A stretch of DNA of 64,000 bases from an uncultured Pseudomonadales bacterium (GTDB lineage: Bacteria; Patescibacteriota; Microgenomatia; UBA1400; MFAQ01): the NCBI GenBank assembly GCA_964487665.1, contig CAZARR010000005.1:100-64099 (forward strand), written 5' to 3'. Shown here piece after piece: positions 16,552 to 64,000 of this stretch. The notes below the pieces were generated by a model. That model was not told where the DNA came from, searched no databases, and saw only the letters and a program-made list of their open reading frames with translations. Position 1 is the first letter of the stretch. Each line of letters opens with the position of its first letter. Both the position numbers and the translations under genes were made by a program.

Positions 16552-16637
16552 TGCCGGGGGAGGGGGTCGAACCCTCACGAGGTTTGAGCCTCATAGGTTT
16601 TTGAGACCTACGCGTCTGCCAGTTCCGCCACCTCGGC
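16552..16637 (-). tRNA. tRNA-Leu(CAA), type II with long variable arm
   Basis: Cloverleaf read by eye on the minus strand. Acceptor GCCGAGG/CCCCGGC has one A:C mismatch. D-arm GGCGGAACTGGCAGACGC. Anticodon loop CUCAAAA gives CAA. Long variable arm GAGGCUCAAACCUC. T-arm GAGGGTTCGACCCCCTC. Discriminator A. No encoded CCA. Confidence 0.75.
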
Positions 16638-54943: not shown

Positions 54944-56212
54944 TTAAAGTAACTTTTGATCAATTTCGATCTTGATTTTAGCAATAAAAGCTTGCAAAGT
55001 CATCTGTCCGAGGTCAGGTTGGTTCCGGGAACGTACAGAAACGATGTTTTGGGATTGTTCTTTTTCGCCTAAAATTAGCATATAAGGAATTTTTTGCGCT
55101 TGAGAGTTGTGGATTTTTTTGCCCAGAGTTTCTGCTGATTGGTCAAGCTCGGTGCGAATGTTTAGGGATTTTAAGCTCTCATCAACCTGTTTGGCATAAG
55201 GCAATATTTTGTCGGAAATGGGAAGCAAGGCAACCTGAACCGGAGAAAGCCAGGTTGGAAGTGAACCCGCAAAATGTTCCAATAAAAAGGCCGCGACTCT
55301 CTCGATAGCACCAATACTTGAACGGTGAATAACAATTGCCATTTGTTCGAGACCATCAGCACCAATAAATTTAAGATTAAACCTTTCAGGCATTACAAAA
55401 TCGTACTGGACGGTAAAGGCAGTTTCTTCGACTCCGGTTATCTTTTTCATTTGTATATCAATTTTTGGTCCATAAAAAGCAGCTTCGTCTGCTGCCTCGA
55501 AATAATCAGCGTTTCTTTCGACTAGAGAGTGGCGGAGTAGGTCTTCCGCGTCATCCCAGCCTTGTGGATCGTCAACGTATTTAGTTGTGTTTTTTCTGTC
55601 GCCAAGAGAGAGTCTATATCTGTAGTTACTACCAGGTTTCAGGCCAAATGTTTTTGCTACAAAATCAATTAAATTCAGGGCTCCTTTAATTTCCTCTTTA
55701 GCCTGTGCTTTGTTGGCGCAAATAATATGTGAATCGGCCAAACAAAAAGATCTGACTCGGGTGAGTCCAGATAATACCCCAGAAAGCTCGTACCGGTATA
55801 GCTTGGCGATCTCTGCAATCCGCATGGGTAATTCCTTGTAACTACGAGGCTGTGAGAGGAAGAGTTCAAAGTGGTGAGGGCAGGTCATAGGACGAAGCAT
55901 ATATTCTTCATCGTCAATTTTGATGGGGGCATACATTGTTTCTTTGTAGTAAGGGTAGTGGCCGGATTTTTTGTACAAATCAATTTTTCCGATATCTGGG
56001 GTGTAAACATGTTGGTAGCCCCATTTGAGTTCTGTATCCACCACAAAGTGTTCTAGTTCCCTTCTAAATGTGGCACCTTTTGCAGTCCACAAAGGCAATC
56101 CTTTGCCGACCACATCTGAGAATGTAAATAATCCTAATTCTCGACCCATTACTCGGTGATCACGGGGGTCAAGGGATTCGCTTTCTTGATGGTCTTGGTT
56201 TATTGTTTGCAT
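54944..56212 (-). CDS. thrS: threonine--tRNA ligase, minimal form (catalytic + anticodon-binding domains only)
   Basis: HRSSIGAIERVAAFLLEHFAGSLPTWLSPVQVALLPISDK parallels ThrRS motif 3 and the anticodon-binding domain. 422 aa versus ~640 in full-length enzymes (N1/N2 editing domains absent). Heads the thrS-infC-rpmI-rplT-pheST cluster. Confidence 0.88.
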   Translation of the reverse strand: MQTINQDHQESESLDPRDHRVMGRELGLFTFSDVVGKGLPLWTAKGATFRRELEHFVVDTELKWGYQHVYTPDIGKIDLYKKSGHYPYYKETMYAPIKIDDEEYMLRPMTCPHHFELFLSQPRSYKELPMRIAEIAKLYRYELSGVLSGLTRVRSFCLADSHIICANKAQAKEEIKGALNLIDFVAKTFGLKPGSNYRYRLSLGDRKNTTKYVDDPQGWDDAEDLLRHSLVERNADYFEAADEAAFYGPKIDIQMKKITGVEETAFTVQYDFVMPERFNLKFIGADGLEQMAIVIHRSSIGAIERVAAFLLEHFAGSLPTWLSPVQVALLPISDKILPYAKQVDESLKSLNIRTELDQSAETLGKKIHNSQAQKIPYMLILGEKEQSQNIVSVRSRNQPDLGQMTLQAFIAKIKIEIDQKLL

Positions 56213-56237
56213 TTGATTATATTTTTAATAAAAAACC

Positions 56238-56295
56238 ACCTTCGATTGCAGGATCCCGTAAGGGAGGTTCCATCCTGCTTACCAGTGGTGGTCTC
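56238..56295. promoter_or_regulatory. nested stem-loop (ACCACC ... GCAGGAT-CCC-GUAA-GGG-AGGUUCC-AUCCUGC ... GGUGGU) in the thrS 5' leader
   Basis: Perfect complementarity of outer (ACCACC/GGTGGT) and inner (GCAGGAT/ATCCTGC) stems. CCC/GGG closes a GTAA (GNRA) loop on the plus strand. Located 26-83 nt upstream of the thrS start. Confidence 0.3.
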
Positions 56296-56494
56296 TTGAT
56301 TGTCAGATTGGGGCTGACTCCCCTGCTTCTTTATGGTTGGTGTCCATATTCTAACGAAGCATTTCAGTTGTAATGGCAGTATAAGACTTGTTACGTTGTT
56401 ATTTCAAGTGGTGGTGTTATTCTAGCATTTGCTCGAACCCTTTTTGAACTGGCAAAACCGCTCCGCTTTCTTAATTCCGAACAAGTTTCGTTTG

Positions 56495-56601
56495 GTGGTC
56501 TTCTTTAGAGAAATTCTAACCTATTTCCGACAGAATTATTAACAGCGGAGCTCACCGCTCCGCGTGCGCGCCCCCACCCGCGCACGCCTCGCGGTTCGCA
56601 C
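56495..56601. repeat. IR-A (107 bp, GC-rich, contains two internal perfect hairpins)
   Basis: Reverse complement of 61036-61142 with a single mismatch. Internal palindromes CGGAGC-TCACC-GCTCCG and GCGTGCGCG-CCCCCACC-CGCGCACGC. Confidence 0.9.
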
Positions 56602-56969
56602 TATTTGTATTTTCGCTCGGTTTCCCTCGCTACGTGCTAACGCCCGCTTTGCACGCGATTTTTAAGAAAAGCGGTATCCCGTCCTCAAAGTCGAAGCTTC
56701 GCAACTCCATTTCGGTCGGGATATATTTGCCTTACGGCAAAGTGGCGATATTCATCACCACATTTATATGTTCGCCACAAGATCACATCTAGTGATTGTG
56801 GCGAAACTGTTCTCAAGATATGGCTCGCTCCACTCGCCATTAAATACCCACTGATTAGGAATCGATTTTATCAGTGGGTATTTATGCCTTGAGACAGTTT
56901 TTGTCTCTCAGTCGTGGGCCGATTTCCAGAGAGATGATACCTCTTACGTTTTTCCTCGAATGAAGTTGT

Positions 56970-57758
56970 TTATAAATTCTTAATCTGTAAAGAATCTGAG
57001 GATATAGCTTCATATATACACTTTATTTTTCTCATTTTAAGTTTATCTATAAAGATTTTTCTTTGTGCGCTCACTCGGACATAAGCATCAATTACAGCTT
57101 TTGTTGGAATAACTGGATTATTTTCATTCACCTCCCTATCTTTCAGCCGGGATAATGAAGCATCAAGGGAAGCCAAAATATCAACCACATAAATTATTTT
57201 GTATTCATTCTTAATTGCCATGTTGATTATCATTTCCAGATCTTCAACATATTCAAGTGTTCTTTCTGTGATGAAGCTTTTTCTTAATGAGAATATCTTC
57301 TCATACGTCCAAAGGGTCACAAAATACGCTTCAAGATCGTACTGATTATCTTTTGTTCCTGTTATGGCAAACTTTTTTAGTTTACTCCGTATGTTGTCTG
57401 GTCCAATTACTCCTGACTTTATTTTGAAAACATTTTTAATAAAAGTTGATTTCCCCGCTCCGGGCTGGCCTCTCACTATTATTACGGATGGTGATAATTT
57501 ATGACCCAACTTTTTTTGTATAATGGTTTCAATTTTTTTCAAGTTATTATTATTCTCCTGAATTAACTCATAGGTGATTTTTTTATGAAATATTTGTCTT
57601 AGAGGAACCCAGTTGCTATGGAGCTTTAAAGTTTCATAAGTTTCGTCCCAGTCATTCTTTTGCCAGTCTTTTTTAAGATTCGAAAAAAGTTTAAATGTTT
57701 CTAGGTTGGGAAACAACCATAATTTGACGTTATTAAGAAAATATAAAAAAGCTTCCAT
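56970..57758 (-). CDS. P-loop NTPase/kinase-like protein (zeta-toxin/AAA_33-like Walker A)
   Basis: Walker A IVRGQPGAGKSTFIKN roughly 105 aa from the N-terminus. Walker B-like IIYVVDI. 262 aa. Confidence 0.5.
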   Translation of the reverse strand: MEAFLYFLNNVKLWLFPNLETFKLFSNLKKDWQKNDWDETYETLKLHSNWVPLRQIFHKKITYELIQENNNNLKKIETIIQKKLGHKLSPSVIIVRGQPGAGKSTFIKNVFKIKSGVIGPDNIRSKLKKFAITGTKDNQYDLEAYFVTLWTYEKIFSLRKSFITERTLEYVEDLEMIINMAIKNEYKIIYVVDILASLDASLSRLKDREVNENNPVIPTKAVIDAYVRVSAQRKIFIDKLKMRKIKCIYEAISSDSLQIKNL

Positions 57759-58508
57759 CTATTTCACAGCAGTAATTAAAAAAGGATCCGATATTACAGA
57801 TATTTCTCCGTTGACAAATAACTCATCAATTCTGCTCATGTCTTTCTCAGGATCAAAGTCTCTTATTATTGGTGCCATTGTGAAGATCGTGATAATGTCT
57901 TCCCGTGTGTAGCTTTTATTAAAGCTGAATTGAGAGTATGAAAATGTTTGCGGTTTCTCTTTTCTTAATTTTTCAATGTATATCAGAGGATCAGTCAGCT
58001 TCATTCTTTTTGTAAATAGTTCGGTAATTCCACCGAATCCCTTAAGTAATCCATATTCTTTAAAAATAAACAGACCTCCTGGTTTTAATACCCGAAACAC
58101 CTCAGAAAAAGAAAAATTAGTAGCTAATTTATTAGTTATCACATCAAAATAATTATCCTCAAAAGGTAAAGAAAAGTTATCTCCGTAAACTATTTTTATT
58201 TGAGGAAAATCTTTGCATTTTGCGGATGCCTCTGTGACCATTTTTTCTGATAAATCTATACCATATAAACTTTTCCCCTTAATATTTTGTAGATTCTTAA
58301 TTATTTCGGTAAGTACATAGCCATTGCCTGTGCCGATATCTAACAACTTTCCTAAGTCAAATTCGTTCAGATGATTGGCCGCCAACTTAATTAAAGAGCT
58401 TGTTGTATCATCTGTGGCTTGATGTGAACCATAAAATGATTCTCTCGTCTTGACTACCTTATTGGTGTAAAAAGACGCACTGGAATTATTGTCTTGCGAT
58501 CGGTTCAT
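57759..58508 (-). CDS. class I SAM-dependent methyltransferase
   Basis: Motif I LLDIGTGNGYVLTEI. Acidic motif II YGIDLSE. Motif post-II VLKPGGLFIF. The track ORF extends to 58610; start likely M at 58508. Confidence 0.7.
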   Translation of the reverse strand: MNRSQDNNSSASFYTNKVVKTRESFYGSHQATDDTTSSLIKLAANHLNEFDLGKLLDIGTGNGYVLTEIIKNLQNIKGKSLYGIDLSEKMVTEASAKCKDFPQIKIVYGDNFSLPFEDNYFDVITNKLATNFSFSEVFRVLKPGGLFIFKEYGLLKGFGGITELFTKRMKLTDPLIYIEKLRKEKPQTFSYSQFSFNKSYTREDIITIFTMAPIIRDFDPEKDMSRIDELFVNGEISVISDPFLITAVK

Positions 58509-59310
58509 ACTTTGTGGCCTTAACAATAATTGTCCCAGGAATTCTCCGCAGATGCTCATAACTGAAAGGATTGGCTTTTGGGTTACCAACGTACCTCGAT
58601 CTGGTGGCAAAATTATTTGACCTTTCCTCTAAAATTGGCTCAGGTTCTAATAAATTATTGATTACGAATCCAGCTTTGATGACAGACATGACATAATCAG
58701 AAACAGTTTTAAATGATCCGGTCATTGTGGCAGAAATGTTGTCTTCCGGAAACTCGTATTGCCAAGTCTTCATTTCACGATCAAAATAATTATTAAGGAT
58801 AAAGTTATCTTCACTATTCCAATAACCGTGATCTCTAACCGGATGGTCGGCGCTAAAAACTAAAGATCCATTCGGTTTTAATAATCTAAACATTTGTCTC
58901 ATCACACTTTCAAGTGAATCCACGGTCATGCAATATTGAAGAGCAAATGCAGAAACCACCAAATCAAAGGATTCAGGACCAAAATGCTTTTCTACTTCTT
59001 CAAAGTTGCCTTGAACAAATTCAACTATGGCTTTTTCAGATATGGCAAGTTCTTTTCCGTGTTTTAACTGCTCTTCGGATATGTCAAATGCGGTGACTTC
59101 TGCTCCGCGTTTCGATAGAAAAATAGAATTTTGGGCAGATCCAGAACCTAACTCTAAGACTTTCTTGCCCTTAACAGTGCCAAGCAACGTATCTAAATCA
59201 CTCGAATCGCAAAGCGGACCCCAGTAGTATTTATTAGTCTTAATATCGTATCTTTTTTGATAGCTTTTGGATATCTGTTCCCAACCTTCTTTGTTATCAA
59301 GCCTTTTCAT
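58486..59310 (-). CDS. class I SAM-dependent methyltransferase (Methyltransf_11/25-like)
   Basis: Motif I VLELGSGSAQNSIFLSKRGAEVTAFDISEEQL. LLKPNGSLVFS. 274 aa. Confidence 0.75.
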   Translation of the reverse strand: MKRLDNKEGWEQISKSYQKRYDIKTNKYYWGPLCDSSDLDTLLGTVKGKKVLELGSGSAQNSIFLSKRGAEVTAFDISEEQLKHGKELAISEKAIVEFVQGNFEEVEKHFGPESFDLVVSAFALQYCMTVDSLESVMRQMFRLLKPNGSLVFSADHPVRDHGYWNSEDNFILNNYFDREMKTWQYEFPEDNISATMTGSFKTVSDYVMSVIKAGFVINNLLEPEPILEERSNNFATRSRYVGNPKANPFSYEHLRRIPGTIIVKATKYEPIARQ

Positions 59311-60418
59311 TGTTCAATATCATCTGGTAATAATGCTTAATTTTTGAATAAGCATCATTTAGTGTGTTTCCAATTCCAAGTTCTCCATGAAACCTAAGTA
59401 TCATAAATCCATTGTTCTTTTGCAGATGAGGAACAGTTGGAATAATTGCATCAAAACTCCCATATCGGACATACTCAGGTGTTTTATATTCTTCAAGTGC
59501 GTCGGAATAAGTCATGGGACCGCAATGTGAATGGGCTATGGCATTTGTTCCAGTAGTTTGATAATAGACAATGTGCATTGGCGTATCACATGAAGGCATT
59601 TTTTCACCACACCAAGCGACTTTATCTTTAGTTTTTAGATTGATAAGAGTTAAATCTTGAAGAGCAAGGTTTCCCAATCTGCTTCCTGTGCTCGTGATTA
59701 GAGCCCAGTTATCGTCTACTCTAATACTGTAATTGCCATTGGTCGAAAAATTGGTTCTATCTTTTTCTTGTGTTTCTCCTAGTGTTCTAAAAACTTCATA
59801 ATATTTCTTCCTGGAATTATTTAAGAGTTCAAGTGTTTGTGGGTCTGACATCTGTTCCGAATCAAAAATGATTTTTGACTCTTCTATATAAAGTCTATCC
59901 AGAGCCCTCCTGTAATCCATCATGGAAACTTTTTCTTTGGTTATATTGGGCCAAATAATGATCACGCCCCAACTTTCTAATTTCTTAAGTGACTCCATAG
60001 TTTGAGGATGATTCCACATATCTTTGTTAAATGCTGGTATAACCAAGACTCTTTTTTTCTTGCCGATAGCGGTTGCTACTAAAGTGGTTGGATAGTTATC
60101 TGCAATACCAAGAGCGATTTTGTTAAACGTGTTAAACGTGCACGGAGCAACAATTACGATATCTTCTTCGGGAATGGACCTTCTTGGACCATGCCAATTA
60201 AAATCCTCATGGATATTATCCGAGAATTTTTTAAGCGGTTCGATAATATTTAAGGCTTTCTCGGTTGGGAATAGGTGGACGTTGCATCCCTGGCCAATCA
60301 GTTCATCCGCCATTTCTGCAATTTTTTCTATCTTTCCGGCAGCTGTGACAACCAAATATACAGTCTTCCCGGAGATTGTTTGTCTTGGAATTTTTATCAG
60401 ATGCTCATTCATTTCCAA
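59297..60418 (-). CDS. fusion protein: N-terminal HFCD-type flavoprotein (EpiD/CoaC-like) + C-terminal class II aldolase/adducin-like domain
   Basis: N-terminal GKTVYLVVTAAGKIEK ... IVIVAPCTFNTFNKIALGIADNYPTTLV ... VLVIPAFNKDMW matches the Flavoprotein (PF02441) consensus. C-terminal IAHSHCGPMTY resembles the class II aldolase HxH metal-binding region. Confidence 0.6.
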   Translation of the reverse strand: MEMNEHLIKIPRQTISGKTVYLVVTAAGKIEKIAEMADELIGQGCNVHLFPTEKALNIIEPLKKFSDNIHEDFNWHGPRRSIPEEDIVIVAPCTFNTFNKIALGIADNYPTTLVATAIGKKKRVLVIPAFNKDMWNHPQTMESLKKLESWGVIIIWPNITKEKVSMMDYRRALDRLYIEESKIIFDSEQMSDPQTLELLNNSRKKYYEVFRTLGETQEKDRTNFSTNGNYSIRVDDNWALITSTGSRLGNLALQDLTLINLKTKDKVAWCGEKMPSCDTPMHIVYYQTTGTNAIAHSHCGPMTYSDALEEYKTPEYVRYGSFDAIIPTVPHLQKNNGFMILRFHGELGIGNTLNDAYSKIKHYYQMILNNEKA

Positions 60419-60951
60419 AGTTTTCTGGCTTTTAATATTTCGTATGACAAAATTGGAATAACTGTTGGTGTCGTCATAAAAGGTAAAGCACAGGGAATGG
60501 TGATTTTTTCATCCATCAGTGCCAGCTGATCTTTGGAGAGGCCATTGGCTCCGCCGATCATAATTACATCATTGTCCAGCCATTCAAAATCTAAAGCATT
60601 ATCTCCTCCATTGGGGACTGTGGCTACAAGACGGAACCCCTGTCTTTTTAATTCTTCAAGTGAATTCTCTCGCCTCGGAATGGCATCTACATCATTTTTA
60701 GTTAAGTTCCAGGATTCCACCTTGGAAGCTACTTTAGGGTGAGAAAAGTCAAGAGTTACCCCAATCATTTCAAAACCAACGTGCGGCACACCAACTTTTG
60801 TTGCCAAAGAAACTTGAGCCGCCTGAGCAATATCAAAAGGTTTATCTAGGTTCACCAGGGCAAACCGGACTGGCGGAACGACACATCGTTTCTCCCACTC
60901 ACTCCAGGAGCTTAGAGAATTTTCTAAGCCGTATTCTTGGTTTATTTCCAT
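60409..60951 (-). CDS. SPOUT-class (SpoU/TrmH/TrmL-like) RNA 2'-O-methyltransferase
   Basis: IMIGGANGLSKDQLALMDEKITIP (motif 2-like) and TTPTVIPILSYEIL (motif 3-like). 180 aa minimal SPOUT. Confidence 0.55.
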   Translation of the reverse strand: MEINQEYGLENSLSSWSEWEKRCVVPPVRFALVNLDKPFDIAQAAQVSLATKVGVPHVGFEMIGVTLDFSHPKVASKVESWNLTKNDVDAIPRRENSLEELKRQGFRLVATVPNGGDNALDFEWLDNDVIMIGGANGLSKDQLALMDEKITIPCALPFMTTPTVIPILSYEILKARKLWK

Positions 60952-61035
60952 GTTGTTAATTTTAGCACAGATTTGATAGATATTCAGCTTATAGGCTGTT
61001 AATTTTTGCGTTTTCTGGTCGAGCCAACTCTTTGA

Positions 61036-61142
61036 GTGCGAACCGCGAGGCGTGCGCGAGTGGGGGCGCGCACGCGGAGCGGTGAGCTCCGCTGTTAATA
61101 ATTCTGTCGGAAATAGGTTAGAATTTCTCTAAAGAAGACCAC
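61036..61142. repeat. IR-A' (107 bp), inverted copy of IR-A
   Basis: Reverse complement of 56495-56601 (106/107). Shares its last 4 bp (CCAC) with the start of IR-B. Confidence 0.9.
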
Positions 61143-61227
61143 AATAATAGAGGTTCGCCCTGCTGGGGCGGCAGTCGCCCGCGCGAGAGCGGCCGCGCGG
61201 AGCGATACAAACGGCTTTTTGTATTCG
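61139..61227. repeat. IR-B (89 bp, GC-rich, several internal palindromes)
   Basis: Identical to the reverse complement of 63873-63961. Internal palindromes GGGCG-GCAGT-CGCCC, CGCGCG ... CGCGCG and ATACAAA ... TTTGTAT. Confidence 0.9.
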
Positions 61228-61309
61228 GGTCTAAAAAGATAGACAGAAAACGCAAAAATATAAATAGGTAAAACCTGTTTCTCTTCAGTTTCGGGAAATA
61301 TATGGTTAA

Positions 61310-62341
61310 ATGGTAATTAAGGTGAAATATATTGCCTACTGCCGGAAGAGTACTGATGAGAAAGACAAACAGGTTTTGAGTATTGAGTCGCAGATCGCGG
61401 AGTTAGAGGAGTTTGCCGGAAAGGAGAAACTGGAAGTTGTTTCCTGGATTGTAGAGAGCAAGACGGCCAGGGTTCCGGGGAGACCCAAGTTTGAGGAAGC
61501 TTTGAGATTGGTTGAATCCGGGAAAGCCGATGGACTTTTCGCCTGGCATCCAGACCGTCTTGCCAGAAATTCGGTAGATGGCGGTAGAATCATTTACTTA
61601 CTGGATACCGGCAAACTCCTTAATCTTAAATTCCCGACGTTCTGGTTTGAGAACACGCCCCAAGGCAAGTTTATGCTGAATATTGCCTTCGGCCAATCTA
61701 AGTATTACGTAGATAACCTAAGTGAGAATGTCAGCCGTGGATTAAGACAGAAGATTAGAAATGGAATCTGGCCAAGCAAAGCCCCTCACGGCTACTTTAA
61801 CTGTCCTCAAACCAGGACGATCAAGGTGGACAAGAAAAAATCAATAGTGGTCAAACAAGCTTTTGAATTGTTCGCGACAGGGAAATACAGTTACCACGAA
61901 ATTGGTAAGTTTCTCGCCTCTCACGGAATTCACGGCAGATCTCGGGAAGTATTACATCAGTCTGTGGTTAAAACCATGCTCACCAATCCCTTTTACATCG
62001 GTATCCTCGTCTATTCTGGCGAGAAATACAAAGGCAGTCACCAACAATTCATTGGGAGAGACTTGTTTGACCAAGTTCAAGAGCAGGTCAAGTATAAAAG
62101 TAAACCCCGGAAACATGGTCACAACTTTGCCTTTACTGGTTTAATTAAATGCCGTGAATGCGGAGGGGCAATTACGGCCGAGGAACACATCAAGCACTAT
62201 CCTACGACCCGTGGTGAGGTCAGATATGTTTACTACCGCTGTTCCAAGAAAATGGGTGTGAGATGTTCTCAGCCATATCTTGCCGAAGATAAATTGGTAA
62301 AGCAAATCTGGCTTAATTTAAGTTATGTGTTGGTAATTTAG
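61310..62341 (+). pseudogene. large serine recombinase, N-terminal fragment (resolvase catalytic domain + recombinase domain + zinc ribbon), interrupted by IS insertion
   Basis: YIAYCRKSTDEKDKQVLSIESQ (catalytic Ser region). LFAWHPDRLARN. Recombinase domain. Zinc ribbon CRECGG ... YYRCSKK ... C. The frame diverges after LVKQI exactly at the IS left end. Confidence 0.8.
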
Positions 62342-63440
62342 CCGTTTGGCGGGTAAAAACGAGTTAAGTACAGGTACCAGGAAATAAGATTCTCTTTGCT
62401 TGTTTGGGTCATGCCACGGTGGATCAATATTTTGTTGTCAAGCTGGGAGTAGGAGCCTTCGGAGCTGTTGTTGTCTTTGGGGAGATTGGGGTAGCGAAAG
62501 TAGGTAAACATGTGAGGGAGCGCTTGATAGAGATGCTGGTAGCTTTGACGCAAGTACGGGTGGGTGTACCACCACTTAGGAGTCTTTCGCTCAGGATCGT
62601 CATTGAACGTTTTTGTTGTAAAGAATTGGTAATGCCGTTTGTAGAGACGGATAAACCAGCGGATGAAGATTTTGGCTTCGTAAGTGGTAGTGATTTTGTT
62701 GATATGGGAGGCAAGGAGTAGTAGGTCTTTTCCCGCCTCTGTTTGGGGGTGTTGGGTTAAGAGAGTTTGGATTCTGGTTTGGATATGGACGAGACAACGC
62801 TGCACGGGGACAGATAAGCTGCTGCAGGCAGAAAACATGGCTTTCTTGCCGTCAAAGATGGCTACCTTGAGTGGGTATCCTGCCTCAACCAAATACTCAA
62901 TATCAGCCTTAATCACGGCGAGGTATTCCCCACCCGCTAGAGACCAATAAATGAGCCCTAACTTGGTATCGCGATAGGTAATGAGACAGCGGTCACCAAA
63001 CCAGTCAGCATCGATTAAAAGGTAACCAGTACAATCGCTCCAACTGGCAGTAGTTTTGAGCTTAACAAAGTAGGTTTGAGAGGTGGGAGGTGAAGCCAAA
63101 TATTGCTGGAATCTAATACTTAACGAGGGGACTGATAGGCCAGAGAGCTCACTTAAGTAGGCTAGGGTTGACGTATGTCGCACCCACTGGCAAAATAAAC
63201 GGAATAGCTTGCGACTGGAGACTCTTTCTTTATTGCCCAAACTGAAACAGGAGTGGCAATTAGAGCAATAAAATCGACACTTCCCCTTACTAGTTTTTCC
63301 CCACTTTATAGCTGGGTTTTGACACTGTGGGCAGTGGTGAAAACGCTTGTTTTTTTCATGGGTAGATATTTTAGACGCATATTAGTGCGATAACAAGGAA
63401 AAAACAACCATTTTCACCAACACTTAAGTTAAATTAAACC
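62310..63440. mobile_element. insertion sequence (1131 bp) with ~27-bp imperfect terminal inverted repeats and 8-bp target-site duplication GCAAATCT
   Basis: TSD copies at 62302-62309 and 63441-63448. Left end GGCTTAATTTAAGTTATGTGTTGGTAA. Right end (reverse complement) GGTTTAATTTAACTTAAGTGTTGGTGAA (23/27). Encodes one transposase ORF. Inserted within the serine recombinase gene. Confidence 0.75.
62338..63240 (-). CDS. IS transposase (DDE-type candidate; QRCLVH motif reminiscent of IS256/Mutator-family, family uncertain)
   Basis: 300-aa ORF filling the IS. Candidate acidic residues in LLIDADWFGD and VAIFDGKKA. VQRCLVHIQTR motif. Confidence 0.55.
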   Translation of the reverse strand: MGNKERVSSRKLFRLFCQWVRHTSTLAYLSELSGLSVPSLSIRFQQYLASPPTSQTYFVKLKTTASWSDCTGYLLIDADWFGDRCLITYRDTKLGLIYWSLAGGEYLAVIKADIEYLVEAGYPLKVAIFDGKKAMFSACSSLSVPVQRCLVHIQTRIQTLLTQHPQTEAGKDLLLLASHINKITTTYEAKIFIRWFIRLYKRHYQFFTTKTFNDDPERKTPKWWYTHPYLRQSYQHLYQALPHMFTYFRYPNLPKDNNSSEGSYSQLDNKILIHRGMTQTSKENLISWYLYLTRFYPPNG

Positions 63441-63872
63441 GCAAATCTCCGCTTGTATATCAGATATTGCCCTTCCGCACTCCTGGGCGAAGAGATGGTT
63501 TACCTGGGCTGAAGAAGAGGTAGAAAAAGACCGGCAAAGTTGTGACAAGATAACAATTCAGGTCAGGGGTGAATTAAAACAGATCGAGGAGAAAACCGAC
63601 AGACTGCTTGACCTGTATCTTGAACAGAATTTAGCTGAAGAAATCTACAAGAAGAAGCAAAACCAACTATTTGAGGAGAAGACAAAACTCATGGCTCAAA
63701 TTGAAAAGAGTAAAGGAGGAGGTTCGATCTGGCTCGAACCAATGAAAGAATTTATAGATTGCGCCCTGCAGGCGCAAAAAATCGCGCGCAAAGAATATAC
63801 AAATGGCAAAATCTGCGATTTTGCCAAAAGAGTTGGCTCGACCTATCTTTTAGACAGGGGAAAAATTAGAGT

Positions 63873-63961
63873 CGAATACAAAAAGCCGTTTGTATCGCTC
63901 CGCGCGGCCGCTCTCGCGCGGGCGACTGCCGCCCCAGCAGGGCGAACCTCTATTATTGTGG
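63873..63961. repeat. IR-B' (89 bp), inverted copy of IR-B, abutting tRNA-Val 3' end
   Basis: Perfect reverse complement of 61139-61227. Its terminal GTGG overlaps the last 3 nt of the tRNA. Confidence 0.9.
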
Positions 63962-64000
63962 ACGATGCTGGAGTCGAACCAGCGACCTCTGCAATGTCAA
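63959..64000 (-). tRNA. tRNA-Val(GAC), 3' portion (truncated by window end)
   Basis: Minus strand reads ...UUGACAU-UGCAG-AGGUC-GCUGG-UUCGACU-CCAGC-AUCGUCC-A. T-arm GCUGG/CCAGC with loop UUCGACU. Anticodon loop UUGACAU gives GAC. Discriminator A. The 5' half lies beyond 64000. Confidence 0.6.

Follow-up and report, generated by a model that had tools for sequence, protein, structure and literature searches.

An insertion sequence interrupts the integrase gene of a tRNA-adjacent island in a Patescibacteria genome

The window analyzed here is a stretch of 64,000 nucleotides from contig CAZARR010000005.1 (GenBank assembly GCA_964487665.1, positions 100 to 64,099 of the forward strand) of an uncultured bacterium that is deposited as a member of the Pseudomonadales and placed by GTDB in the Patescibacteriota (Microgenomatia, UBA1400, MFAQ01). 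Towards its right end, a gene for a large serine recombinase (LSR) is interrupted by an insertion sequence (IS) of 1,131 bp. We conclude, with a probability of roughly 0.9, that a mobile IS has inserted precisely into the LSR gene of an island adjacent to a tRNA gene, and that islands of this kind share a design consisting of attL, an inverted attP and attR. The insertion itself is an ordinary event of routine genome decay; the architecture of the island is the part of interest.

Insertion of the element into the recombinase gene

The IS extends from position 62310 to 63440 (minus strand), and these limits were set by its terminal inverted repeats together with the target duplication. The left terminal repeat, GGCTTAATTTAAGTTATGTGTTGGTAA, lies at 62310 to 62336 on the plus strand, and the right one, which reads GGTTTAATTTAACTTAAGTGTTGGTGA on the minus strand, was located by repeat search at 63414 to 63440. 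The two ends agree at 22 of 25 positions in the repeat search and at 23 of 27 when compared by eye. Directly outside of them, the 8-bp target-site duplication GCAAATCT can be read on the plus strand at 62302 to 62309 and again at 63441 to 63448. An earlier note on this DNA had reported the limits, the terminal repeats and the duplication, and every one of its coordinates was reproduced. A scan for the IS end pattern yielded 2 occurrences in the window, which are the two ends of the IS, while 0 were expected from shuffled sequences. The IS is present as a single copy, and neither it nor its ends recur elsewhere in the window.

The LSR gene is interrupted at codon 330. Its 5' part (61322 to 62309, plus strand) comprises codons 1 to 329 and one additional nucleotide, and all three domains Resolvase, Recombinase and Zn_ribbon_recom (PF00239, PF07508 and PF13408) were detected in it with Pfam scores above the cut-offs. 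The start had been placed at an ATG at 61310, which has to be corrected, as the start conserved in homologues is the GTG at 61322 (MKYIAYCRK...). The open reading frame (ORF) of the N-terminal part runs into the IS, where it is continued by 10 junk codons and ends at 62341. The 3' part (63449 to 63961, plus strand) encodes a coiled coil and the C-terminal region, and its last 96 nt lie in a repeat arm of the island, termed the P arm below. Its frame is continuous with that of the 5' part. When 61310 to 62309 is joined to 63449 to 64000, no stop codon is encountered up to the end of the window and the protein reads ...KLVKQISACISDIALPHSWAKRW... across the junction. At the nucleotide level the restored junction reads ...GTAAAGCAAATCTCCGCTTG..., and the join expected for the intact allele is ...AAGCAAATCT followed by CCGCTTG....

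The restored LSR was compared with the intact homologue P0001, and 513 amino acids were aligned with 82% identity and 0 gaps. Because this alignment is gapless, the junction is exact, and the claim that removal of the IS restores a continuous LSR frame held. The restored protein further covers 99% of several homologues of 510 to 590 amino acids and retains 112 of the 113 residues that 30 homologues share without exception, with S10 present in the motif CRKSTDEKDK. Resolvase domain, recombinase domain, zinc ribbon and coiled coil follow one another in the order of serine integrases, and the SPbeta integrase is the best relative of solved structure, to which the alignment extends through residue 408. 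In-silico excision thus restores a protein typical of the family, as had been proposed for a precise insertion with an 8-bp duplication. Judged from its sequence, the LSR gene was functional until the IS inserted.

The proposal that the insertion is recent was likewise borne out, by the perfect duplication, the retained invariant residues of the LSR and the frame of 337 codons that is still open in the IS. Relatives of the LSR are numerous, as at least 7,650 of 8,000 candidates scored had E < 1e-20; those that carry a name belong to Patescibacteria, Parcubacteria and Curtissbacteria. Among intact proteins, the nearest share 82 to 90% identity with the window LSR and stem from other genomes.

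Architecture of the island and its occurrence elsewhere

The LSR would be the integrase of a 7.5-kb island (56495 to 63961) whose integration site is the 3' end of a probable tRNA-Val(GAC) gene. The order of its parts is flank, core, R, cargo, R', core, P', LSR, P, core and tRNA, where R and R' as well as P' and P are pairs of inverted repeats. The R arm (56495 to 56602, plus strand) was identified by repeat search and comparison of three sites and forms the left, attL-like end of the island, with the core GTGG at 56495 to 56498 and a mimic of the tRNA T-loop, TTCTAAC, at 56514 to 56520. R' (61035 to 61142, plus strand) is 99% complementary to it and carries the mimic as GTTAGAA at 61117 to 61123; together with P' it constitutes an inverted attP-like site P.core.R. 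P' (61139 to 61234, plus strand), the left inverted copy of the P arm in the repeat search, starts at the core CCAC (61139 to 61142), and the P arm (63866 to 63961, plus strand), the right copy of this 96-nt repeat around the LSR gene, is 98% complementary to P' and ends at the core GTGG (63958 to 63961). The 108-nt and 96-nt repeat pairs therefore abut at a shared 4-nt core. Between R and R' lies a cargo module of 4.4 kb with lower G+C (56603 to 61034, minus strand; Pfam and composition profile). It encodes, according to Pfam, a zeta-toxin/AAA_33-like kinase, two SAM methyltransferases, a fusion of a flavoprotein with a class II aldolase and a SpoU-like methylase.

The convergent tRNA gene is represented by its 3' part (63959 to 64000, minus strand), with the T-loop GTCGAAC at 63973 to 63979, and is cut by the end of the window. 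In a permissive Rfam scan of 56100 to 64000, positions 31 to 71 of the tRNA model were matched there with 23.5 bits as a 5' truncated hit; at gathering thresholds only a tRNA-Leu at 16552 was detected in the whole window. Apart from the truncated tRNA, the permissive scan gave only one chance match, and the repeat arms matched no known RNA family in Rfam. Assignment to tRNA-Val(GAC) is based on the closest intact relatives (L001, L003 and L093 to L095), which are located at tRNA-Val(GAC) genes whose sequence matches that of the window.

Comparison of the three core-containing sites revealed how they are related. Site 1 is flank-GTGG-R, site 2, in reverse complement, is P-GTGG-R, and site 3 is P-GTGG-tRNA; site 2 hence combines the left half of site 3 with the right half of site 1. 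With Q denoting the flank, the three junctions would correspond to attL (Q.R), an inverted internal attP (P.R) and attR (P.tRNA). The P-to-R join reads ...CTCTATTATTGTGGTCTTCTTTAGAG..., and the Q-to-tRNA join, which represents the empty site, reads ...GTTTCGTTTGTGGACGATGCTGG.... The earlier note had overlooked that the LSR ORF crosses the attachment site into the tRNA gene. The KKPF-containing C-terminal segment that it described is present, but it lies inside the 96-nt inverted repeat, and beyond this repeat the ORF is antisense tRNA.

To what extent the design recurs was assessed in a survey of 85 loci, five of them around close or informative homologues and 80 from one metagenome scan. In about 65 of the 85 loci the LSR gene is flanked by an inverted repeat of 50 to 147 nt with an arm identity of 88 to 100%, and the right arm extends with its outer end 2 to 12 nt into a convergent tRNA gene from the 3' side, a gene that can be of almost any isotype. 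A second repeat pair that abuts the first and bounds a module of 0.7 to 7.5 kb was present at about 35 loci, wherever enough of the left flank had been assembled, and the three-site relation holds in 33 loci. All parts of the design are present in L093, the closest intact relative with enough flank, which is located at tRNA-Val(GAC) and carries restriction-modification genes as a cargo of 8 kb. Cargo varies among related islands, with restriction-modification genes for example in L093 and L006, and the R' region is conserved beside the LSR gene in L001 to L003. A description of this island architecture was not found in the searchable literature, the coverage of which is incomplete, so that absence is not proof; the design is apparently widespread and undescribed.

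Two simpler origins of the repeats of about 100 nt were considered and rejected. Terminal repeats of a transposon, or assembly artefacts, are ruled out by recurrence in independent assemblies, by outer ends that always lie at a tRNA 3' end and by the exchange of half-sites between the three junctions. The attL/attR junctions of a plain LSR prophage share only a short core and not long repeats. The arms contain GC-rich hairpins and were also inspected for unusual RNA structure, and since the median z-score across 70 P arms was -1.8, no claim of a structural RNA is made.

Two further observations were made in the surveyed contigs. Chains of three or four abutting repeat-bounded modules are located beside a tRNA gene in L006 (6467 to 11542) and L063, and L006 contains two LSR genes that point in opposite directions, with a type I restriction-modification system after them; such chains suggest tandem accretion of elements. 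Several contigs start or end exactly at a repeat arm (L007, L013, L015, L021, L025, L037, L046, L055, L061, L062 and L072), which fits assembly breaks caused by the repeats as well as mixed orientations in the populations.

The position of the T-loop mimic gives an indication of which half-site belongs to which partner. In the window, TTCTAAC of the R arm is found 15 nt from the core, while GTCGAAC of the tRNA is found 11 nt from it, and in 39 of 44 loci the distance to the crossover is greater by 4 or 5 bp for the TTCGAAC-like mimic of the R arm than for the real T-loop. For the Listeria LI integrase, a displacement by 5 bp of the motif for the zinc-ribbon domain has been described between the attP and attB half-sites (PMC3783163). 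As the offset of 4 to 5 bp matches the shift of LI integrase, and thus the displacement of about 5 bp characteristic of serine-integrase half-sites, it supports R as an attP-type and the tRNA as an attB-type half-site. Only R and not P mimics the T-loop, and the zinc-ribbon domain of the LSR would probably read the T-loop sequence of the tRNA. Because the P and flank (Q) halves are poorly conserved even between close relatives, recognition may proceed mostly via R and the tRNA side.

Further information came from the C-termini of the LSR family. The ORFs of this family (P0001 to P0120) have no stop codon ahead of the tRNA gene, apart from a minority that ends in a tail encoded by the R arm. 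Their C-termini contain a conserved KKPFASLRAAALARA-like stretch that is mostly followed by G[IVLF]EP, the translation of the antisense tRNA T-arm, and these tRNA-side tails are of very different lengths. Following the LSR frame through P-core-R instead yields a conserved short tail of the form ..F..IRT[YH]F..N., with its stop codon 13 to 14 codons past the arm in 26 of 58 loci. Precisely this R-type tail is present in the natural proteins P0035, P0036, P0060, P0099 and P0109. For the LSR of the window the predicted R-type tail is VVFFREILTYFRQNY followed by a stop, and the restored protein with this tail would end in ...SIIVVFFREILTYFRQNY. P0035, with an R-type tail, and P0034, with a tRNA-type tail, are 89% identical and diverge precisely at the core; therefore both junction states occur in nature. 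Near-identical elements in opposite orientation were not found at 93% identity or more among the 85 loci. P0024, P0079, P0095 and P0112 possess a third conserved read-through tail (..W N x L L..), which is neither derived from a tRNA nor of the R type and points to another class of junction partner.

These tails bear on the question of whether the repeats form one attachment site or several. The two modules could be independent cassettes with palindromic sites (P.core.P' and R'.core.R) that were inserted serially, or a shufflon-like inversion system. Chains of three or four abutting modules, some of them with two LSR genes (L006 and L063), and the different cargo of otherwise related elements are in line with such an origin, as is the fact that inverted sites only invert the DNA between them and never excise it. 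However, R' travels with the LSR gene even where the cargo differs, T-loop mimicry is limited to R and absent from P, and the LSR frame through P.core.R ends at the conserved stop described above, with natural proteins carrying that tail. Since both the conserved stop and the R-tailed proteins are accounted for if P and R form one contiguous site, we favor the latter and regard independent cassettes or a shufflon as an unlikely origin of the modules.

In the simplest model, with P.core.R as the attP site, the circular form of the element would carry two inverted attP regions, and one duplication of about 200 bp would explain both repeat pairs. Integration via one attP would exchange the tail of the LSR, and inversion across the internal copy could restore the native tail. 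That the exchange of the tail controls LSR activity is speculation. We propose tentatively, rating the proposal at somewhat less than an even chance, that these islands are undescribed and very abundant elements of Patescibacteria in which three features are combined: an integrase that reads the universal T-loop/CCA end of tRNA genes by means of a mimic in one attP arm, an ORF across attP whose native tail of about 14 residues and stop codon exist solely in the excised circle or a flipped state and give way to antisense-tRNA sequence on integration, and an inverted copy of attP that makes both halves of the element invertible and could return the native tail to the gene. Integration state and form of the integrase would thereby be coupled in a factor-free manner.

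Additional sequence features were noted in and next to the island of the window. A perfect inverted repeat of 16 nt (61002 to 61017, plus strand, with its partner at 61244 to 61259) was found by repeat search; it brackets the inverted attP cassette, is conserved in L001 to L003 and marks the left limit of the sequence conserved among relatives. A 17-mer at 61017 to 61033, also conserved in L001 to L003, is identical in inverted orientation to 63827 to 63843 in the 3' coding part of the LSR and is found on the "wrong" side of R'. The two sequences look like traces of further rearrangement. Inside the left R arm, about 60 nt (56603 to 56662) are 92% conserved in L093 (304 to 363) despite unrelated cargo and may represent a conserved left-end backbone element of the island. 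An untranslated stretch of about 280 nt (56213 to 56494) separates the left end of the island from a gene for a class II aminoacyl-tRNA synthetase (54944 to 56212, minus strand). On the minus strand, GC-rich hairpins with a T run behind them are present in this stretch, for which Rfam gave no match; a leader or riboswitch is possible but unsupported.

The insertion sequence and the fate of the integrase

The transposase of the IS had been described as a single protein of 300 amino acids, which turned out to be too short. The 300-aa ORF occupies 62338 to 63240 on the minus strand, and the same frame extends further upstream through a CPxC...CxxC zinc finger. This zinc-finger frame has no start codon of its own; the sole ATG (63359 to 63357) is in the +1 register and is directly followed by seven A (A7; 63350 to 63356 on the minus strand, T7 on the plus strand), so that a putative recoding site is situated three codons after the ATG. 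By frame analysis the transposase coding region was therefore delimited to 62338 to 63359 (minus strand), with the stop codon at 62338 to 62340. A -1 shift on A7, or one added A in the mRNA, leads to a product of 340 amino acids that begins with MKKNKRFHHCPQC..., and the 337 codons after the shift comprise the zinc finger and the DDE/CxxH body. The 300-aa ORF is accordingly the part downstream of the conserved frameshift site. The transposase is probably produced at a low level; its synthesis would require that the ribosome slips by -1 on A_AAA or that one more A is introduced during transcription. Upstream of the gene, a weak promoter-like site, TTGTTA and TAAAAT spaced by 17 nt (63368 to 63396, minus strand), was obtained from a consensus scan only.

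Comparison with related elements indicated that the recoding site is not an accident of this copy. In L004, a Parcubacteria metagenome-assembled genome, and in L005, IS copies about 80% identical to that of the window were found, which likewise have a length of exactly 1,131 bp, share its ends and are flanked by the 8-bp duplications GACTATTC and GCATATTT, respectively. A third other variant (L088 to L092) is again 1,131 bp long with the same ends and is joined to several different flanks. The A7 run, the layout of ATG and A7 and the cysteines of the zinc finger are conserved in all four diverged variants, and A8 is found in none. In the more distant relative P0147 the equivalent N-terminus (MAKNRKERCPEC...) is contained within a single ORF. 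Nearly all transposase relatives with 77 to 88% identity have been called as ORFs of 281 to 300 amino acids on contigs of about 1.1 to 1.6 kb, and short contigs together with short ORF calls appear to be the signature of a multicopy IS whose N-terminus is missed by gene callers. The frameshift is, as far as these comparisons go, a conserved feature rather than damage, and the IS lineage seemingly depends on recoding at the very start of its transposase. We know of no A7 frameshift three codons after the start in IS256 or IS1249.

The earlier assignment of the IS as IS256-like stands at the level of the superfamily only. Residues 8 to 333 of the 340-aa reconstruction matched the NCBIfam IS1249 family (E = 2.6e-44), however with 151.9 bits against a cut-off of 300, and a whole-length match to the "IS256 variant Zn-binding type" (IS256_Zn_var; E = 4e-34) scored 118.2 bits against a cut-off of 150. 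Among 17 homologues of the transposase, 7 match DDE_Tnp_IS66 and 3 match Transposase_mut in Pfam, and a search of the PDB with an alignment profile returned a weak match to the Mutator-family transposase 6xg8 (E = 0.044). Across 17 homologues, Q187, C189, L190 and H192 of the QRCLVH motif are invariant, which agrees with the CxxH signature, and the DDE triad D117, D170 and E301 is invariant or nearly so. The terminal repeats (23 of 27) and the duplications of 8 bp at three insertions lie within the range of the IS256 family, for which repeats of about 20 to 30 bp and duplications of 8 to 9 bp are typical. IS256 family elements are 1.2 to 1.5 kb long with a single ORF, following the ISfinder description; the window IS is shorter, its 1,131 bp recur in four variants and a -1 shift is required.

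Terminal repeats of about 25 to 27 bp that start with GG, 8-bp duplications, a DDE transposase with CxxH (QRCLVH) and an N-terminal four-cysteine zinc finger are shared with the IS256/IS1249 group (NF033544 and NF048019). Unlike in that group, both scores lie under the curated cut-offs (152 versus 300 and 118 versus 150), Transposase_mut is not matched here, and relatives are divided between the IS66-DDE and Mutator models. From its sequence, the IS appears to be a mobile, divergent lineage of the IS256 superfamily, IS1249-like and of the zinc-finger variant, that is specific to Patescibacteria.

In view of this multicopy character, it has to be considered that the junctions between IS and LSR gene are an assembly product, or belong to a minority of the population while most cells have an intact LSR. 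Many relatives of the IS are found on contigs of IS length, and for the variant in L088 to L092 left and right flanks do not match, so assemblies do mis-join the IS. However, both junctions in the window carry the same 8 bp, a matching target duplication that is not expected from a chimeric path, and removal of the IS and one copy restores the frame without gaps relative to homologues. An identical truncated ORF of 343 amino acids is moreover recorded on a 70.9-kb NCBI contig. We therefore hold an artefact or a minority allele to be quite improbable.

A real insertion could still be reversible. With a perfect duplication and with gene and IS otherwise undamaged, precise loss of the IS would regenerate a working gene, and IS256 excises precisely in staphylococci; low-frequency excision via the duplication would then render the mobility of the island phase-variable. 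Against such a switch, an uninterrupted allele is not in evidence, as the nearest intact proteins are those of other genomes mentioned above, and no other LSR among the 85 loci is interrupted at the same site, which leaves no hint of a recurrent or selected arrangement. A switch is even less probable than an assembly error. That the N- and C-terminal pieces are unrelated genes flanking the IS by chance, for which nothing speaks beyond the existence of two separate ORFs, is refuted by their colinear, gapless alignment across the junction to more than 100 full-length homologues, which also bears out the earlier view that both fragments are in compatible frames and belong to the same protein.

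The reading of a simple, precise insertion has consequences for the island. The IS is located just past the zinc-ribbon Pfam match (residues 275 to 333) and ahead of the coiled coil, which in serine integrases mediates synapsis and directionality (PMC3783163). Excision and LSR-driven inversion of both modules would stop with the truncated LSR. No other LSR gene was found in the window, and the modules are bounded by attachment-site arms of this LSR family; for this reason it is reasonable to assume that they are frozen, as the earlier note had suggested for an inactivating insertion, the break lying between zinc ribbon and coiled coil. The insertion has probably immobilized the island and fixed its modules, unless the IS is lost precisely or a related enzyme takes over in trans. 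The IS may thereby serve as a dated marker, according to which the island was intact until very recently.

Several points weigh against parts of this interpretation. Recent activity of the IS in this genome has to be reconciled with one copy in the window and a best database relative that is only 88% identical. The Pfam scan of the window transposase gave no match, including to Transposase_mut, which makes the family placement loose. IS elements use slippage on A runs, and in the documented transcriptional cases these runs comprise 8 to 9 A (PMC1088944); A7 is shorter. A recoding site three codons past the start is unusual, and translation may begin at a non-canonical start instead. Loss of LSR function is deduced from knowledge of the domains, and the genome could encode a related LSR at another place that would act in trans. 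Finally, recombination at the three sites is a prediction for every member of the family.

Comparison with known systems and implications

The LSR resembles phage-type large serine integrases (A118/LI, SPbeta SprA, phiC31 and Bxb1) in its domain order, in the short core shared by its sites and in a half-site motif that is moved by 4 to 5 bp between attP- and attB-type arms, as for LI. Unlike in these systems, tRNA genes of many isotypes are targeted at their 3' end and T-arm, and the ORF crosses the crossover, so that integration would swap the last 14 or so codons for antisense-tRNA sequence. In addition, the integrated element keeps an inverted copy of attP, and its modules are bounded by inverted repeats of about 100 nt. 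No candidate directionality factor was identified for the LSR family of the window.

An attachment site within the integrase coding sequence, and a gene that is changed by integration, are known from archaeal viruses of the SSV1 type, whose int gene contains attP and is split in two by integration. Those integrases are tyrosine recombinases, whereas here a serine recombinase would exchange only a short C-terminal tail. The Flp/FRT system of the yeast 2-micron circle is a flip-flop system with inverted repeats and likewise employs a tyrosine recombinase; the predicted free circle of the island, with two inverted regions of about 200 bp and two halves predicted to be invertible, is similar to it, but the 2-micron circle does not integrate.

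Tn4451 and Tn5397 (TnpX/TndX) and the Ccr recombinases of SCCmec are comparable in that an LSR is the sole mobility enzyme of a small cargo element. Long inverted repeats are missing from those elements, which also do not use tRNA 3' ends as targets, and the NCBIfam matches of the window LSR to CcrB, CcrA and XisF are partial and far under the cut-off (106 versus 900 bits for CcrB). With invertase systems (Hin/Gin/Min and shufflons), the island shares segments that are flanked by inverted crossover sites, here the 108-nt and 96-nt repeats. Both types of tail were found, but in different elements, of which P0034 and P0035 (89%) are the closest pair, and the enzyme is an LSR of about 500 amino acids with zinc ribbon and coiled coil rather than a Fis/enhancer-dependent serine invertase of about 190 amino acids or Rci.

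If the internal inverted attP and the exchange of the tail operate as proposed, they would represent a novel way in which serine integrases solve the problem of directionality. If integration proceeds via the T-loop, the family would also offer many compact serine integrases with a target motif that almost every genome preserves, which would be of practical interest for genome engineering. Bacteria of the candidate phyla radiation possess very small genomes, and little is known about how they exchange genes. Should it be true that these elements integrate at tRNA 3' ends via the T-loop, this would help to explain how accessory genes, among them restriction-modification systems, toxin-like kinases and methyltransferases, move between such genomes.

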